Counted from the stretch's first letter, positions 1,728-18,629 are shown. The stretch is DNA of 51,073 nt from Patescibacteria group bacterium (GCA_020428645.1 JAGQMN010000003.1:1-51073), one strand, 5' to 3'. The notes: a model not told the origin generated them from the sequence alone. Numbers and translations: made by a program.

Positions 1728-3005
1728 ATGTCACAGACACGCACCCCAAAATATGTTGTGTACGTCGGGAGTATTTCTGAACGAAGTTTAGAAAACTTAG
1801 AAACCTACATCAAACAACAGAATAAAAACTGGCACATAATGATTCTTCAAGAAGAAACAGTAGCAAAGACTCCGTATAGCGTCTCACTTAATTTCAATAG
1901 TGATGATGCTATACACAATTGGGTAGACATTTATGGAAAAGACATACTCTGTGTCACTGCACGAGGTGAGAGAAATATACCACTCTTGCAACGCTTGATT
2001 CCATTTTTGCCTCCACACGTTTTAACACCAAGCGTTGCATCGCTCAAGAAATCAACTGAAAAAACAGAAATGCGTAAGGCGTTTCGTAAATACAATCCAA
2101 AAATAACTCCACGATTTAAAATTATTAAAGACTTAGAGACAATCGATGCTGGAACAATCATGGTAAACATGGATTTCCCTGTTATCGTAAAACCATCTGG
2201 ACTTGCTTCGAGTTTGCTCGTTCAAGCAGCACACTATCCTGAAGAACTAGAATCAATTCTCCGAAAAATTAAGAAAAAAATTACATCAGTCTACAAAAAT
2301 CAAAAAGGTCGTGGAGTACCATCGATTCTGGTTGAAGAAATTATCGAGGGAGATATTTATTCGATTGATGCATATACAGATAATCAAGGGGTCACGTTTT
2401 TTACCCCCTTTGTGAAATATAAAACGAGTGCACAAAAAGGATTTGATGATTTTTTTCTGTACGAGAGAATTATTCCTGCTCGACTCTCCAAAGAGAAACG
2501 TGAATCTGGAAAACAGATTGCACAAGAAGGTATCAAAGCGCTTGGGCTCCGCAACACAACAACCCATATTGAACTCGTATATAGCGAGGATGGATGGAAA
2601 ATTATCGAAATAGGTCCCCGTATCGGTGGTAATAGAGAAATGATGTACGAATTATGTTTTGGGTTAAATCACAATATTAACGATCTCCTTATCCGCATAC
2701 CAAAACGCAAACCTGTTCTTAAAGAAAAACGAGTTGGATACATTTCAACTATTCAATTTTTTCCTCGTGATGAGGGGTACATTAGTAAAGTTGAAGGATT
2801 AAAGAGAGCAAAAAACTTGGCAAGTTTTTATGAACTCAAACAAAAACTCAAAAAAGGTGATAAATCACTGCATGCAAAAAATGGCGGTACATTCGTTGCT
2901 CAAATTACCCTCTTCAATAAACATAAAGCTCAGTTCATCGAAGACAAACGTAAGCTTGAAAAAATGGTACACATTGAAACCAAAAAGAATGGAAATAAAA
3001 AATAA
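1728..3005 (+). CDS. ATP-grasp domain ligase (substrate unknown)
   Basis: FPVIVKPSGLASS, ILVEEIIEG..YSID, HIELV...IIEIGPRIGG ATP-grasp motifs. ATG at 1728 chosen over GTG 1716. Confidence 0.85.
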   Translation: MSQTRTPKYVVYVGSISERSLENLETYIKQQNKNWHIMILQEETVAKTPYSVSLNFNSDDAIHNWVDIYGKDILCVTARGERNIPLLQRLIPFLPPHVLTPSVASLKKSTEKTEMRKAFRKYNPKITPRFKIIKDLETIDAGTIMVNMDFPVIVKPSGLASSLLVQAAHYPEELESILRKIKKKITSVYKNQKGRGVPSILVEEIIEGDIYSIDAYTDNQGVTFFTPFVKYKTSAQKGFDDFFLYERIIPARLSKEKRESGKQIAQEGIKALGLRNTTTHIELVYSEDGWKIIEIGPRIGGNREMMYELCFGLNHNINDLLIRIPKRKPVLKEKRVGYISTIQFFPRDEGYISKVEGLKRAKNLASFYELKQKLKKGDKSLHAKNGGTFVAQITLFNKHKAQFIEDKRKLEKMVHIETKKNGNKK

Positions 3006-3024
3006 CCCTGGTATGGGTTATTTT

Positions 3025-3357
3025 TTATCCCAACTTTAGACCATCTTCCAGATCTTTATCAGGAACCGCAAGGACAACTCCATCATCTCGATAGAATCCA
3101 GTAATCAAAAACTCTGACATAAACGATCCAATCTTCTTTGGTAGAAAATTAATCACACCAATAATTTGCTTACCGATGAGCTCTTCCTTGTCATATAAAT
3201 TAGTAATTTGTGCGCTTGATCTTTTGTGACCGAAATCACCAAAATCTACGGTAACAATATAGGCAGGTGTTCGGGCCTCTGGAAAATCTTGAACATCAAC
3301 AATCGTTCCTGTTCGTAGTTCAATTTTTTCAAAATCATTCCATTTAATAGTATTCAT
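3025..3357 (-). CDS. csaA: tRNA-binding protein / chaperone CsaA (Trbp111-like)
   Basis: WNDFEKIELRTGTI...PEARTPAY...DFG...KRSSAQIT..Y..EELIGKQI..VINF.PKKIG.FMSEFL.TG. Confidence 0.9.
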   Translation of the reverse strand: MNTIKWNDFEKIELRTGTIVDVQDFPEARTPAYIVTVDFGDFGHKRSSAQITNLYDKEELIGKQIIGVINFLPKKIGSFMSEFLITGFYRDDGVVLAVPDKDLEDGLKLG

Positions 3358-3413
3358 AGTAATGTAATTATAAATTAAAAAGAGAGATTCATCGACCTCT
3401 CTTATCATATACA

Positions 3414-4190
3414 CTAAAGTAACTTAGCTTTACTTATTCCTTTTTCAATAGCGTTAACTAGCGATGAGGTAAATCCACGACTATCCATTTCAAGCAAGGT
3501 AGTAATAGTACAACCGTTTGGTGTAGTAACAGCATCTATGAGTACTTCAGGATGTTGTTGTTTCTCTCTGACGAGATTACCTGCCCCAATAAGCACTTCT
3601 CGAGCAAGCTCTAATGATGTGTGTTCATTAAAACCTGCTTGAATTCCTGCTTGCATATATGCACGAATAAATTTAAGAGCAATTGCGACTCCAGATCCCG
3701 AAAGCACCGTAAATTGTGGGAATTGTAGTTCATCAATACATACTACCGAACCAATGCTTTTAAAAAGTTCCTGTACATATTTTTGTTTGGTACCTGTGCT
3801 AATTGCGGTCATGGACTGACCAATAGCTGATGCTGTATTTGGCATAGCCCGATAGATATGGGGATTGGGTAATCTTAAAAATTTCTTGATAGAATTAATA
3901 GTTATCCCCGCAACAACAGAAATAATAATGTGCTCTTCCCATATATGACCATCCATATCAGCAATAGTTTCTTCTAAATCTTTAGGTTGCACTGCAAAAA
4001 TAATAACGTGTGCGTCACTCGTAGCATCTTCATTAATTTCTGTAAATGTACACTCAGGAAACTGTTGTTGTTTCTCAATTACCTGCTGTTCATCTTTACA
4101 CTTAAGTGTCACAACGTAGCCATTTTTTTGCATACCAGTTGCAAGTGCGATTCCTAAATTACCAGGACCAATAATTGTTACATGTTTCAT
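3414..4190 (-). CDS. proC: Pyrroline-5-carboxylate reductase
   Basis: IIGPGNLG Rossmann motif, AVQP, RAMPNTA, SGSG, VTTPNGCTI. Visibly AT-richer than its neighbours. Confidence 0.93.
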   Translation of the reverse strand: MKHVTIIGPGNLGIALATGMQKNGYVVTLKCKDEQQVIEKQQQFPECTFTEINEDATSDAHVIIFAVQPKDLEETIADMDGHIWEEHIIISVVAGITINSIKKFLRLPNPHIYRAMPNTASAIGQSMTAISTGTKQKYVQELFKSIGSVVCIDELQFPQFTVLSGSGVAIALKFIRAYMQAGIQAGFNEHTSLELAREVLIGAGNLVREKQQHPEVLIDAVTTPNGCTITTLLEMDSRGFTSSLVNAIEKGISKAKLL

Positions 4191-4218
4191 AAAAAAATAT
4201 TTATTAAGTTAAAAGAAC

Positions 4219-4244
4219 AAAAAGCGACCTCTGAGGTCGCTTTT
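4219..4244 (-). terminator. Intrinsic terminator in the proC 5' leader (attenuator terminator)
   Basis: Minus strand AAAAGCGACCTC-A-GAGGTCGCTTTTT, ending about 29 nt before the proC ATG. Confidence 0.8.
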
Positions 4245-4283
4245 CAATGTTTTATATAGAGAGTGAATTTAAAATATACAACA

Positions 4284-4349
4284 CTAACAAGCGAGCTCAA
4301 ATATGTGAGTCGCTGGTACCGGGCTAAATTGTGTTGAATATATATTCAT
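4284..4349 (-). CDS. Putative proC leader peptide, 21 aa (MNIYSTQFSPVPATHIFELAC)
   Basis: ATG at 4349, TAG at 4286-4284. Lies 7 nt downstream of a TTGACA-16-TAGTAT promoter and overlaps alternative RNA stems. Confidence 0.6.
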   Translation of the reverse strand: MNIYSTQFSPVPATHIFELAC

Positions 4350-4356
4350 ATAAGTA

Positions 4357-4384
4357 ATACTATCCCTGTATATGTTTCTGTCAA
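4357..4384 (-). promoter_or_regulatory. sigma70 promoter for the proC leader
   Basis: TTGACA (4384-4379), 16-nt spacer, TAGTAT (4362-4357). Confidence 0.6.
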
Positions 4385-4534
4385 ATCAAAAAATAATCAT
4401 ATTGGGTTATTTTTTTTCATACATCTAAAGAATTGAAGAATAGGATAAAGACCGAGGAGAGAAGAAAAAAGAACGCTCACCGTATAACGAGATACGCCTC
4501 GCGTTCTTTTTTCGTAGACGACAAAGGTATTCGC

Positions 4535-5980
4535 CTATTTTTCAATTCGTGCAAAGAGTGGTTCGTCTGGAAGCTTCACCTCCGTCAAACAGGTCTGAAT
4601 CGTCTGTGCGGTTTCAGGCATGAACGGATAAAGGCTAATTGCGAGACGCGAGAGTTCACGTGCGAGGTAGTGTAAATCTTTATGCGCAGCAGCTTCGTCT
4701 TCTTTGATTTTTTTGAATGGTTGGTGTTCAGCAATGAATTGATCCATGTCACCAACAAGTCGCCACATTTCATTCATGACGGTGTTAAAATCAAACGCTT
4801 CCATGTGTTCATGATGGAACGAGAGTGGATCTTCATCAAAGTTAATGTCTGAAATATCAACACCATAGCTCGTGATCATTTTCATGATTCGCTGAACGAG
4901 GTTACCAAGACCATTAGCGAGGTTCGCATTGTAGGCTTCGTGGAATTTTTCCATCGTCATGTCTGAATCTTCGAATGAATTCATATGACGAAGAAGGTAG
5001 TAACGCAATGCCTCAGCACCATATTCATTCACAATGTCGTAGGGACTAATAACGTTCCCGAGTGATTTTGACATCTTTTGTCCACCCGAATTAATGAATC
5101 CATTGATCACCACCTGTTTAGTGTTCGGTAACCCGGCTGCATACAACATTGCCTGCCACATCGCTGCCTGCTGACGAAGGTTATCTTTACCTGCATACTG
5201 AATCGGTTCTCCTTCTGTCCAATAGGTTTCAAAGGTATCCAAATCGTTCGGCCAACCAAGTGTTGAAATATAATTTACCAATGCGTCAAACCACACGTAC
5301 ATAACGTGTTCATCATCTCCAGGTACAGGAATTCCCCATGGCATCTTGCTCTTCAACCGAGAAATTGAAAAATCGTTCAATCCCCCATCAACAAAGTTCT
5401 TGATCTCGTTAAATCGAAAATCAGGAACAACAAAGGTAGGATGCTGTGCATAGAACTCTTTTAAAAATTGTTCGCACGATGAGAACTTGAAAAAGTAGTT
5501 CTCTTCATCAATGAGTTCGAGTTCACGATCTGGGTGTACGGGGCATCGACCATGATCAAGTTCAGAATCAGTTTTTTCAAGTTCACAACCAACGCAGTAT
5601 TTGGTCTGGTAGGCTTTCTTGTAAATGTACCCGTTTTCATCACACCGTTTCCAAAATTCTTGGGCTGCTGCAATATGGTGTGCATCAGTCGTACGAACGA
5701 AGTGCATACCTGACGAGAGGTGGAGAAGATCAATAAGTCCTTTAAATTTGTCGGCAAATGGATCAACGTAGGTTTGTGGGTCAAGACCTGCCTCTTGGGC
5801 TTTTTCCCAAATTTTGTTTCCATGTTCATCAGTTCCTGTATTAAAGAACACATCGTACCCACGAAGCTGTGCATACCGTGCGTATACGTCAGCACGGATG
5901 ATTTCCATGGCAAAACCAACGTGAGGATCAGCGTTCACATATGGCAATGTTGTTGTAATGTACTGTTTTGGTTTCTTCAT
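4535..5980 (-). CDS. metG: Methionine--tRNA ligase (short form)
   Basis: YITTTLPYVNADPHVGF, FNTGTDEHG, YVWFDALVNY, KMSKSLGN. Confidence 0.97.
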   Translation of the reverse strand: MKKPKQYITTTLPYVNADPHVGFAMEIIRADVYARYAQLRGYDVFFNTGTDEHGNKIWEKAQEAGLDPQTYVDPFADKFKGLIDLLHLSSGMHFVRTTDAHHIAAAQEFWKRCDENGYIYKKAYQTKYCVGCELEKTDSELDHGRCPVHPDRELELIDEENYFFKFSSCEQFLKEFYAQHPTFVVPDFRFNEIKNFVDGGLNDFSISRLKSKMPWGIPVPGDDEHVMYVWFDALVNYISTLGWPNDLDTFETYWTEGEPIQYAGKDNLRQQAAMWQAMLYAAGLPNTKQVVINGFINSGGQKMSKSLGNVISPYDIVNEYGAEALRYYLLRHMNSFEDSDMTMEKFHEAYNANLANGLGNLVQRIMKMITSYGVDISDINFDEDPLSFHHEHMEAFDFNTVMNEMWRLVGDMDQFIAEHQPFKKIKEDEAAAHKDLHYLARELSRLAISLYPFMPETAQTIQTCLTEVKLPDEPLFARIEK

Positions 5981-5981
5981 A

Positions 5982-7034
5982 CTACTTTTTAATAATGACA
6001 GTTACTTCATCGTGCTCAATAATCGGTGCACGCTGTGCGGATTTTTGTTTTTCGGATTCTGCAATCAATTCCATAACAAAGAGCGCAATTGGCATCGCGA
6101 GGAGGAGTCCGTAAATACCAAAAAGTTTCGCTCCAATGATAATTGAAATAATAACTACGAGCGATGGAACACCGGTGAGTTTTTTAACAATTAGTGGTTG
6201 TAATCCAAGGTCAAGCACCTGCTGAAGAGCAAAGTAAAAGATCACCACACCAAGACTCATCCAAATACCTCCGTGACTAAACCCAAAAATTGCTGCAGGA
6301 ATGAGTGCAAGGAGAATTCCATACGGGATCAAACCGAGTACTCCCGCCAAGAGTGCCAAAAGGAGTGCGAACGGAATACCCGCAAGTGCAAGTCCTGCAT
6401 AGGTTAAAATAGCGAGAATAAGCGCAATGATAAGTTGACCTCGAAACCATGAACCAACTTTACGCTGCACGCGGTGCCAAATCGAAATAACAGCTTCCTC
6501 GTACTTCATCGGGGTGCAAATGCGTAATACGTGATCAATACCATTGTAATTGATGCTGAGGTAAAACGACACCACAAAGATAATGAGGAGGTTAAAGATA
6601 CCACCAAAAAATTCGAGTGCACCATCGGCAAATCGACTCCTAAACTCTTGATCTTTAAATTGTTCAAGAACACTGGTGATTTCAGTATCAACACTGACGT
6701 GGGTCAGAAATGTATTATTTTGAATAAACGTTTGAATTTCCGGATACACTTGTGCGAGGGAAATAATTTCACGTGCCAAAATAGGCAAGATAAAAATAAA
6801 TACTGCCCCAAATACAATAATGGCAAAAATGTAGAATAAAATAACCGACGCCACTCGAGGAATACGGTAGCGTTTCAATGTAAGGACGAAATCTTCAATG
6901 AATGTAGAGAGAATCAGTGCCACACCAAGAACTAAAAGAAAATCTCCAATAGTCCACAGTGCGTAAATGAGGGCTCCAATGAGCGCTACCTCAAAGAGGT
7001 TATGTTTATCAAAGTGTATACGAACATCATTCAT
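5982..7034 (-). CDS. AI-2E family transporter (PerM/YhhT-like)
   Basis: Multi-TM; GSWFRGQL, LGLIPYG, LQPLIVKKLTGVPSLVVIISIIIGAKLFGIYGLLLAMP. Start at 7034 chosen from -10 box spacing. Confidence 0.88.
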   Translation of the reverse strand: MNDVRIHFDKHNLFEVALIGALIYALWTIGDFLLVLGVALILSTFIEDFVLTLKRYRIPRVASVILFYIFAIIVFGAVFIFILPILAREIISLAQVYPEIQTFIQNNTFLTHVSVDTEITSVLEQFKDQEFRSRFADGALEFFGGIFNLLIIFVVSFYLSINYNGIDHVLRICTPMKYEEAVISIWHRVQRKVGSWFRGQLIIALILAILTYAGLALAGIPFALLLALLAGVLGLIPYGILLALIPAAIFGFSHGGIWMSLGVVIFYFALQQVLDLGLQPLIVKKLTGVPSLVVIISIIIGAKLFGIYGLLLAMPIALFVMELIAESEKQKSAQRAPIIEHDEVTVIIKK

Positions 7035-18504: not shown

Positions 18505-18535
18505 AAAAGAAACCGCCGTAATCCGGGCGGTTCTT
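18505..18535 (-). terminator. Intrinsic terminator in the ileS leader (attenuator terminator)
   Basis: Minus strand AAGAACCGCC-CGGATTAC-GGCGGTTTCTTTT. Confidence 0.85.
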
Positions 18536-18566
18536 GTATAACAATCATTACAAAGTTCCCGGATTC

Positions 18567-18614
18567 TTATGCGGTCCTTGAAATAATAATTGAAATAATT
18601 GCACGTCGTTGCAT
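18567..18614 (-). CDS. Ile-rich ileS leader peptide, 15 aa (MQRRAIISIIISRTA)
   Basis: ATG CAA CGA CGT GCA ATT ATT TCA ATT ATT ATT TCA AGG ACC GCA TAA: five ATT Ile codons within six consecutive codons, upstream of a terminator and of ileS. Confidence 0.85.
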   Translation of the reverse strand: MQRRAIISIIISRTA

Positions 18615-18620
18615 GTTTTA

Positions 18621-18629
18621 ATCCTAACA
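18621..18629 (-). promoter_or_regulatory. Extended -10 for the ileS leader peptide
   Basis: TGTTAGGAT, 6 nt before the leader ATG; the same spacing is seen at many genes in the window. Confidence 0.55.

Follow-up and report, generated by a model that had tools for sequence, protein, structure and literature searches.

A putative leader-peptide attenuator with clustered proline codons upstream of proC in Patescibacteria

Patescibacteria, or Candidate Phyla Radiation (CPR) bacteria, are thought to be minimal in regulation and to have almost no amino acid biosynthesis, and their gene control is nearly unstudied. The stretch of 51,073 nucleotides analysed here (GCA_020428645.1 JAGQMN010000003.1:1-51073, hereafter “the window”) is contig C33 of assembly G000, a 0.72-Mb Patescibacteria genome that is 88% complete. 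It encodes proC, the gene for pyrroline-5-carboxylate reductase, downstream of a short leader and an intrinsic terminator. What does this leader do, and what would let RNA polymerase pass the terminator and reach proC? The evidence suggests that the leader is probably a ribosome-mediated transcription attenuator, in which translation of a leader peptide would report the supply of charged tRNA-Pro. Coordinates are those of the window, and its features lie on the minus strand unless stated otherwise.

The leader upstream of proC and its alternative pairings

The initial annotation of this DNA proposed a promoter, a small open reading frame (ORF) with two proline codons, and a switch between 1:2, 2:3 and 3:4 pairings upstream of proC. 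We recovered every one of these elements in place, with a single correction to the size of the terminator loop. The sigma-70-type promoter TTGACA-16-TAGTAT (4357-4384; -35 at 4384-4379 and -10 at 4362-4357) agrees with the consensus at 10 of 12 positions and is the best promoter-like match within 3000-6000. The leader ORF (4284-4349) begins with an ATG at 4349, 7 nt past the -10, and ends with a TAG at 4286-4284. Its 21 codons specify the peptide MNIYSTQFSPVPATHIFELAC. The putative regulatory codons, CCG-GTA-CCA (4314-4322; CCG at 4322-4320 and CCA at 4316-4314), encode Pro10-Val11-Pro12 and sit in an unpaired stretch between the 5′ strands of an outer and an inner helix. In the outer helix (P1), CAACAC (4331-4336) pairs with GTGTTG (4284-4279). 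Nested within it is the inner helix, in which segment 1, AGCGACTCA (4314-4306), beginning at the last base of the Pro12 codon, pairs with TGAGCTCGCT (4299-4290). The 1:2 pairing inside a longer CAACAC...GTGTTG stem is thus present as first described.

Segment 2, TGAGCTCGCTTGTTAGTGTTG (4279-4299), contains the stop codon and has two possible partners, either segment 1 together with the 5′ strand of P1, or segment 3. We delimited segment 3, AACATTGAAAAGCGACCTCA (4232-4251), by folding with masking and by a duplex energy test; it comprises a spacer and the 5′ arm of the terminator. The terminator with its T run occupies 4211-4246, and its stem of 13 pairs (4246-4218) closes a loop of 3 nt (CAG), not of 1 nt as originally annotated. 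It ends about 20 nt upstream of the proC ATG, and we found neither a Shine-Dalgarno (SD) sequence nor a separate proC promoter in the 20 nt past the T run. The proC gene itself (3414-4190, ATG at 4190) encodes 258 amino acids with the Pfam domains P5CR_dimer and F420_oxidored, and the protein scores 209.9 bits against NCBIfam TIGR00112 (cut-off 196.75).

The 2:3 pairing proved to be stronger than initially proposed. TGAGCTCGCTT (4299-4289) matches AAGCGACCTCA (4242-4232) at 10 of 11 positions, and the helix is extended by TTAGTGTT (4287-4280) with AACATTGA (4251-4244). The predicted energy of this duplex is -16.1 kcal/mol, compared with -8.3 ± 2.4 when segment 2 is shuffled (p = 0.0075). A switch between 1:2 and 2:3 demands that segments 1 and 3 be alike, and here the two (AGCGACTCA and AGCGACCTCA, respectively) are almost direct repeats. 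When the RNA was masked up to the leading edge of a ribosome on Pro10 or Pro12, the minimum-energy fold was the 2:3 antiterminator, in which segment 2 (4299-4279) pairs with the spacer and terminator 5′ arm (4251-4232), rather than the terminator. The 166-nt leader as a whole has a folding energy of -36 kcal/mol, versus -21.6 ± 3.4 for shuffled sequences (z = -4.2), and none of 200 shuffles folded as well.

Searches with curated models found no known family at this locus. Across the whole window there was no Rfam match at gathering thresholds. At E ≤ 10, the interval 4100-4600 gave chance-level matches alone, mostly to the terminator, with no T-box or riboswitch among them, and none of the Trp_leader, His_leader, Leu_leader, Thr_leader and Phe_leader models matched this interval up to E = 10.

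Related leaders and their conserved design

We read directly the DNA upstream of the closest ProC homologues and searched for further copies of the leader. Nine were identified in Patescibacteria contigs, seven of them upstream of proC genes from one ProC clade and two upstream of other genes. With the window included, nine copies are complete; the remaining one, upstream of proC in L140, is cut at its 5′ end and retains only the last two codons (C-A) of the ORF. The order -35/-10, ORF, nested hairpin, terminator and proC is common to all seven proC-linked relatives. The leader peptides of the six complete ones are (M)NRNAKFYSLPVPPATYWVAGFCV in L009, from a Nomurabacteria assembly; MFKKHKINTSPVPPTSLMVVDFCV in L015; MIVNTKIQTPVFPPTSYMVVDFCVQN in L002/L019, from a Saccharibacteria metagenome-assembled genome; MINAKLIVNNSPVPAPFKKNWVAGFCV in L020; MFKSAKLNSPVPPTTYHSVAGLCV in L021; and MKQYAKTQVNVVPPAIPRVADLCA in L137. 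The relatives’ ORFs have 24-27 codons. The existence of nine homologous leaders supports the proposal of a proline-codon peptide with a 1:2 / 2:3 / 3:4 switch at proC.

A covariance model (R1), built from the leaders of five relatives with the window left out, recovered the window leader end to end, from the start codon to the T run (4215-4349; 30.9 bits, E = 0.006 in 355 kb). R1 also recovered three other members that had not been used in its construction, at 46-50 bits. No leader was found by R1 at 25 distant Patescibacteria proC loci. About 1,300 genomes were scanned in all. In two wider scans of 401 genomes each, one of the class around G439 and one of the window’s class, only G439 and G712 were positive; G712 is the same as G1089, a 100% complete genome of the same order, as judged by identical coordinates in both scans. 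Given that only two genomes were positive across both scans, the leader family is rare. Some R1 matches were rejected as leaders: a second match in L002 (6018-6143, 40 bits) consists of two tandem terminators, and the reverse-strand matches (31-36 bits) are palindromic terminators.

Several features bear on whether the small ORF is translated. The -35/-10 pair occurs at the same position in eight aligned copies and in L148, one of the two copies upstream of other genes, and the start codon lies 6-9 nt past the -10 in all complete leaders. Each complete copy has two or three clustered Pro codons, forming a conserved P-V-P(-P) cluster, in a setting where Pro accounts for 3.6% of codons genome-wide in G000. 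The nine complete leaders contain 25 Pro codons, every one CCN, and their third base is G in 9, A in 7, C in 5 and T in 4. A fixed CCN with a free third base points to a constraint on codons and not to an RNA motif. Across the leaders, 27, 30, 33 or 36 nt separate the ATG from the first Pro codon; because these lengths differ by multiples of three, every indel kept the frame.

The start of the ORF also resembles other gene starts in the same genome. The long ORFs of G000 show no SD enrichment upstream (5% vs 9% in a control window), and 167 of the 555 (30%) have a -10-like hexamer whose end lies 6-9 nt upstream of the ATG, compared with about 6 per position (~1%) elsewhere. This pattern suggests that genes in G000 start mainly as leaderless mRNAs. 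Given the missing SD signal and the -10 peak at 6-9 nt, the start of the leader ORF is of the leaderless kind usual in its genome. A single tRNA-Pro (UGG) was found in the 88%-complete assembly; it would serve all four Pro codons.

The stems are conserved in the relatives. MAFFT alignments misplace several leader rows, and we therefore used a model-based alignment of eight members together with hand-checked helices. In this alignment 81.5% of cells are paired, versus 40-49% when the partners are slid by 1-3 columns. Compensatory double changes occur in 14 of the 30 modelled pairs, a count that none of 500 shuffles reached and that compares with 1-5 in the slid controls, although the alignment was fitted to the model, which somewhat favours the count. 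By hand, P1 has 6-11 standard pairs in all eight tabulated copies, and the fold of L148 also includes it. G-C/A-U and A-U/G-C exchanges are seen in this helix, and the window has a wholly different sequence in the same place.

The alternative pairing and the geometry are kept as well. Segment 2 is significantly complementary to segment 3 in 9/9 complete leaders (p 0.0005-0.0145), and the terminator 5′ arms differ among copies (AGCGACC, CCAGCUAC, GAGCCACC, GGGAGUCAC, GAACCGCU and others). In all copies an intrinsic terminator separates the leader ORF from the gene behind it. The stop codon falls inside or directly after segment 2 in eight of the nine leaders, and two codons later in L002. From the last clustered Pro codon to the first antiterminator base of segment 2 there are 14-18 nt in eight of nine leaders and about 13 nt in L137. 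This spacing of 13-18 nt corresponds to the reach of a stalled ribosome, so that segment 1 alone would be hidden. In combination, every structural attenuator feature examined in the sequence was found, comprising a leaderless ORF, a Pro cluster, a terminator, mutually exclusive pairings, codon placement and covariation, and the conserved design of the related copies argues that the leader is not a chance arrangement.

We noted other elements around these leaders. An additional element, CCAGTTTTAAAACCCC.GCA..GGAC.GG.AAAC...CTGG, lies between the attenuator terminator and the proC start in L002 (2920-2990, equal to L019 1437-1500) and L137 (930-1000). Its fold combines an outer helix with an inner hairpin, two compensatory pairs being seen, and it has no Rfam match and does not occur in the window; on these features it could be a second regulatory RNA. 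In L019, a gene for elongation factor P (EF-P; 3134-3718) occurs about 0.8 kb downstream of the Pro leader and proC, past a Y1 transposase gene. EF-P acts on Pro-Pro stalls, and its proximity is probably a coincidence.

The initial annotation also pointed to the region upstream of ileS in the window (18505-18629), where we read TGTTAGGAT, 6 nt, an ORF encoding MQRRAIISIIISRTA with five Ile codons, a terminator and then ileS. Read at the sequence level, this is a candidate second leaderless leader of the same logic. A genome-wide scan of G000 for units of a leaderless mini-ORF and a terminator returned mostly noise and missed the ileS leader.

Proposed mechanism and competing readings

From the parts and their conserved geometry we infer that the leader is translated, that its translation is coupled to transcription, and that the outcome responds to proline. 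Transcription would start at or adjacent to the ATG of the 21-codon ORF, giving a leaderless transcript on which a 70S ribosome would begin translation while RNA polymerase is still within the leader. With plentiful Pro-tRNA, the ribosome would reach the stop codon inside segment 2. The finishing ribosome would then cover segment 2, or release it to return to its pairing with segment 1 and the P1 strand; in either case the 3:4 terminator would form and transcription would stop about 20 nt before proC. With scarce Pro-tRNA, the ribosome would stall at one of the two Pro codons, Pro10 or Pro12. Its front would reach about 12-15 nt further, so as to cover segment 1 and leave segment 2 free. Segment 2 could then pair with the spacer and the terminator 5′ arm, the terminator would not form, and proC would be transcribed.

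Several observations weigh against this attenuation of proC by proline supply. The window leader is the most divergent member of the family, and its R1 score of 30.9 bits is below that of several terminator-driven false matches (31-40 bits). Its two Pro codons fall within three codons and are not adjacent, and seven of the eight other complete copies have three. The covariation counts come from an alignment fitted to the model, as noted above. Masking segment 1 does not displace the terminator as the minimum-energy fold in L009 and L020, where only a kinetic route to antitermination would be available. L138, which encodes a close ProC, has no leader by R1. In L005, a 1.4-kb contig, the ProC is identical to that of the window and the upstream DNA differs from 21 nt before the ATG, so that homology to the window starts only just after the terminator; this contig could represent a leader-free strain variant or result from chimeric assembly. 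Two further observations, on the enzyme and on other cargo, are set out below. We also note that the foreign DNA of L005 (1-127) encodes the C-terminus of an unrelated ORF (...MVYAAEHNEEDVAKIFA, then the stop) and is absent from G000.

The first concerns the position of ProC in metabolism. In the 88%-complete assembly of G000, searches with Aminotran_3, Aldedh and OCD for a route to pyrroline-5-carboxylate (P5C) were all empty, and no arginase-family gene was found. An AA_kinase search gave a single match, a 252-residue open frame, and no clear proB was found. On this gene content ProC appears to be an orphan last step, and as no route to P5C was found in G000 its substrate would have to come from outside.

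The second concerns genome G1089, which has two leaders of the family and no ProC. One (L148 1501-2861; G1089:C1) has the leader peptide MSYMYTKVNTSPVPATAMWVFHFCIQ and precedes a 52-codon ORF followed by an agmatinase-type ureohydrolase. This arginase-fold protein scores 211 bits against the agmatinase model TIGR01230 (cut-off 174). The L148 peptide has an SPVPAT core identical to that of the window, and it is the closest relative of the window leader; it also has two Pro codons, as in the window. The other (L136 1643-1244, minus strand; G1089:C4) has the peptide MNYYTKQVNNLPLPPVSYLMAGFCV and precedes a 76-amino-acid membrane ORF with no Pfam match. The presence of two leaders in a genome without ProC indicates that the module is portable and not tied to proline synthesis. 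Judging from these cargoes, either proline shortage would control a wider set of genes, or the peptide would read another signal.

A broader view follows the cargoes more closely, and we consider it possible, if rather unlikely. It takes the leader as a portable Patescibacteria sensing module in self-contained cassettes with a single cargo, each consisting of a promoter at +1, a mini-ORF with a Pro cluster, a switchable terminator, a gene and a terminator; the module may sense more than tRNA-Pro charging. The cargoes known so far are proC, an agmatinase-type enzyme and a small membrane protein, and the window cassette would have been inserted into a terminator hairpin that is now present at both ends. 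In this view the conserved S-P-V-P-A/P-T core could act as an arrest motif for some metabolite from the arginine/ornithine/proline/polyamine node, which these host-dependent cells have to scavenge.

Another reading keeps the same RNA switch and changes only its input. Here the leader would encode an arrest peptide with the core S/T-P-V-P-P/A-T, and stalling at the Pro cluster would be triggered not by tRNA-Pro charging but by EF-P activity or a small molecule, for which ornithine, a polyamine and free proline are candidates. Ser or Thr precedes the first Pro in 7/9 leaders and Val (GTA) lies between the Pros in 7/9, at positions where the RNA is unpaired, and the small number of Pro codons in the window and L148 fits such a peptide. 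So do the agmatinase-type gene behind the SPVPAT core in L148 and the membrane ORF behind another family copy. However, the cargo is proC in 8/10 copies, as plain Pro sensing would predict, and the rest of the peptide is poorly conserved (FELAC in the window versus VAGFCV elsewhere, in a region that is also under RNA-pairing constraint). SpeFL and TnaC are metabolite-sensing peptides that stall at the stop codon and act through Rho. They share with this family the principle that the translation state of a leader ORF decides downstream metabolic transcription, and the agmatinase-type cargo belongs to the polyamine pathway, but the geometry here requires a stall at internal Pro codons and the terminator is intrinsic. 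We regard an arrest peptide as unlikely.

Attenuation by charged tRNA-Pro also has to be set against no regulation at all, in which the leader would be a small gene, a small RNA or cassette debris, and proC would be expressed by constitutive leak-through. The loci L005 and L138, with proC genes of this clade and no leader, agree with this, as do the strength of the terminator and the orphan status of the enzyme. What makes it very unlikely is that the architecture, the 2:3 complementarity and the spacing from Pro to segment 2 are kept across lineages whose ProC proteins are only 40-46% identical to that of the window, together with compensatory changes that would be unexpected for debris.

A further alternative is an untranslated structured RNA with an effector bound at the C-rich bulge and an incidental ORF; it could be a riboswitch, or bind a protein or, as a T-box does, a tRNA. 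Such an RNA would account for the conservation of a hairpin and its unpaired stretch ahead of a terminator/antiterminator pair, and segment 2 of some copies, GGGUGGC, resembles the T-box core. We nonetheless consider it most unlikely. The window has no Rfam match at gathering thresholds, and a search of 4100-4600 at E ≤ 10 brought up neither a T-box nor a riboswitch. The conserved unpaired bases have the strict three-base period of CCN, which argues against a ligand pocket. Through indels in multiples of 3, the leaders retain the ORF, its start 6-9 nt past the -10 and a stop at the end of segment 2. Finally, a leader of about 130 nt is too short for a T-box Stem I. The T-box model (RF00230) was rejected on the last of these grounds and for want of a match at E ≤ 10.

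Origin of the cassette and relation to known attenuators

A ProC protein scan of the genome contigs gave one locus only, and ProC was absent from 40 relatives of G000. The samples ERZ27257486, JGI 3300025847 and SRR5007144 contain an identical locus. In a 401-genome sample of the phylum, 25 other genomes have a ProC, with ≤32% identity to that of the window. The closest homologues in a large protein database are ten proteins on CPR-type contigs (40-46% identity), followed by those of Bacteroidota (35-40%). In the ProC tree the ten CPR proteins form one clade (85/96) that is sister to a Bacteroidota-type clade (97/92), and the two together are far from other Patescibacteria ProCs (100/99). The resemblance to Bacteroidota ProC that had been recognised in the C-terminus is thus borne out.

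Comparison with G010, a genome of the same genus, revealed how the locus differs between relatives. G010 has folC, an ATP-grasp gene and a convergent metG, the last two sharing a single bidirectional terminator (AAAAAATAACCCAtccaggtGGGTTATTTTTT; AAAAAATAACCCA...GGGTTATTTTTT). The window has this terminator twice. One copy, AAAAAATAACCCATACCAGGGTTATTTTTT (2996-3026), is an intact bidirectional terminator at the ATP-grasp gene, and the other, AAAAAAATAACCCAATATGATTATTTTTT (4388-4417), recognised in the alignment with G010, is a degenerate copy at metG, just before the -35. Between them are the promoter, the leader, proC, a terminator and a tRNA_bind gene, about 1.4 kb that is missing in G010. 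By this comparison the leader, proC and the tRNA_bind gene appear to be a 1.4-kb insertion relative to the same-genus genome, with the two copies of the terminator marking its upstream edge at metG and its downstream edge at the ATP-grasp gene. The duplicated hairpin of about 30 bp on the flanks could reflect a target duplication or recombination at the hairpin. The segment has 32-38% GC, versus 41-45% on the metG side, which agrees with the AT-rich composition noted originally for the gene and leader.

The suggestion in the initial annotation that the gene was imported together with its regulator thus holds with regard to the insertion. It does not hold for a Bacteroidota source of the regulator itself, as R1 found no leader at 68 Bacteroidota-type proC loci from metagenomes, and L139, with the Bacteroidota-type order argC-proC-argD, has no leader and no room for one. 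The leader sought at Bacteroidota loci is instead a Patescibacteria feature.

The neighbouring genes complete the picture of the locus. Upstream, metG (4535-5980) has its own terminator region at its end, and the leader promoter comes after it. Immediately 3′ of proC, a terminator search identified a terminator-like hairpin (3380-3403). The stand-alone gene for a tRNA-binding domain (Pfam tRNA_bind; 3025-3357, 110 amino acids) belongs to the same inserted segment; it is absent from 12 same-genus genomes and from the metG/ATP-grasp interval of G010. Its likelier start is the ATG at 3357, as the automatic call of 127 amino acids would cross the proC terminator hairpin. In the 481-amino-acid methionyl-tRNA synthetase encoded by metG, Pfam detected no tRNA_bind domain.

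How does the leader compare with known systems? The leaders trpL, hisL, pheL, leuL, thrL and ilv of E. coli have a short ORF with codons for the end product and segments that pair as 1:2, 2:3 and 3:4, an intrinsic terminator directly before the biosynthetic gene, and a stop codon that lets the finishing ribosome block the antiterminator. At the level of sequence features, the Patescibacteria leader would match the trp, his, leu, thr and phe attenuators in every structural feature tested, and it matched no curated leader family. It differs from them in having no similarity in sequence or model, in that the amino acid is proline, and in that the ORF is at the transcript 5′ end without an SD. It also differs in its host, which has almost no amino acid biosynthesis, and in controlling what appears to be a single orphan proC. 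In Bacillus subtilis, proline-specific T-box leaders of proBA and proI sense tRNA-Pro charging through a choice between terminator and antiterminator. A T-box works without translation, contacting the tRNA directly by Stem I and the T-box bulge, and none of its defining parts is present here.

Proline codons have a precedent as sensors in Salmonella, where those of mgtP, a leader ORF of mgtCBR, sense charged tRNA-Pro (PMC3641672). As proposed here, low charged tRNA-Pro in mgtP and in mgtL, the mgtA leader, leads to attenuation-like refolding and more downstream transcription (PMC3641672). Unlike the proC leader, mgtP and mgtL control Mg2+ transport and virulence genes, are SD-led ORFs in long leaders with multiple inputs, and are unrelated in sequence. 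Leaderless leader peptides have likewise been described: 14 were predicted in Deinococcus deserti, in a text from which proline is absent (PMC4007540), and leaderless polycysteine leader ORFs were reported in mycobacteria (10.1101/834739). These have in common with the proC leader an ORF at the transcription start and amino-acid-specific codons before tRNA-synthetase or biosynthesis genes, but they are from other phyla and use other amino acids, and the mycobacterial ones act largely on translation of operon genes. The attenuator survey of Naville and Gautheret never mentions proline (PMC2965389). Our literature search on Patescibacteria or Saccharibacteria in combination with leader peptides, attenuation or leaderless transcripts found no paper, and we came across no description of this mechanism for proline synthesis either.

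We conclude that the proC leader is a putative new family of classical attenuator, carried on a predicted imported cassette, in a phylum from which no earlier case has been reported. If this is correct, Patescibacteria couple transcription and translation on leaderless mRNAs and monitor their proline supply. Control of proline synthesis by its end product at an orphan last step would imply that P5C or a related precursor is obtained from a host or the environment. The leader is a compact, sequence-defined switch that is testable in laboratory strains or cell-free systems, and proline synthesis would join the classical list of attenuator-controlled pathways.

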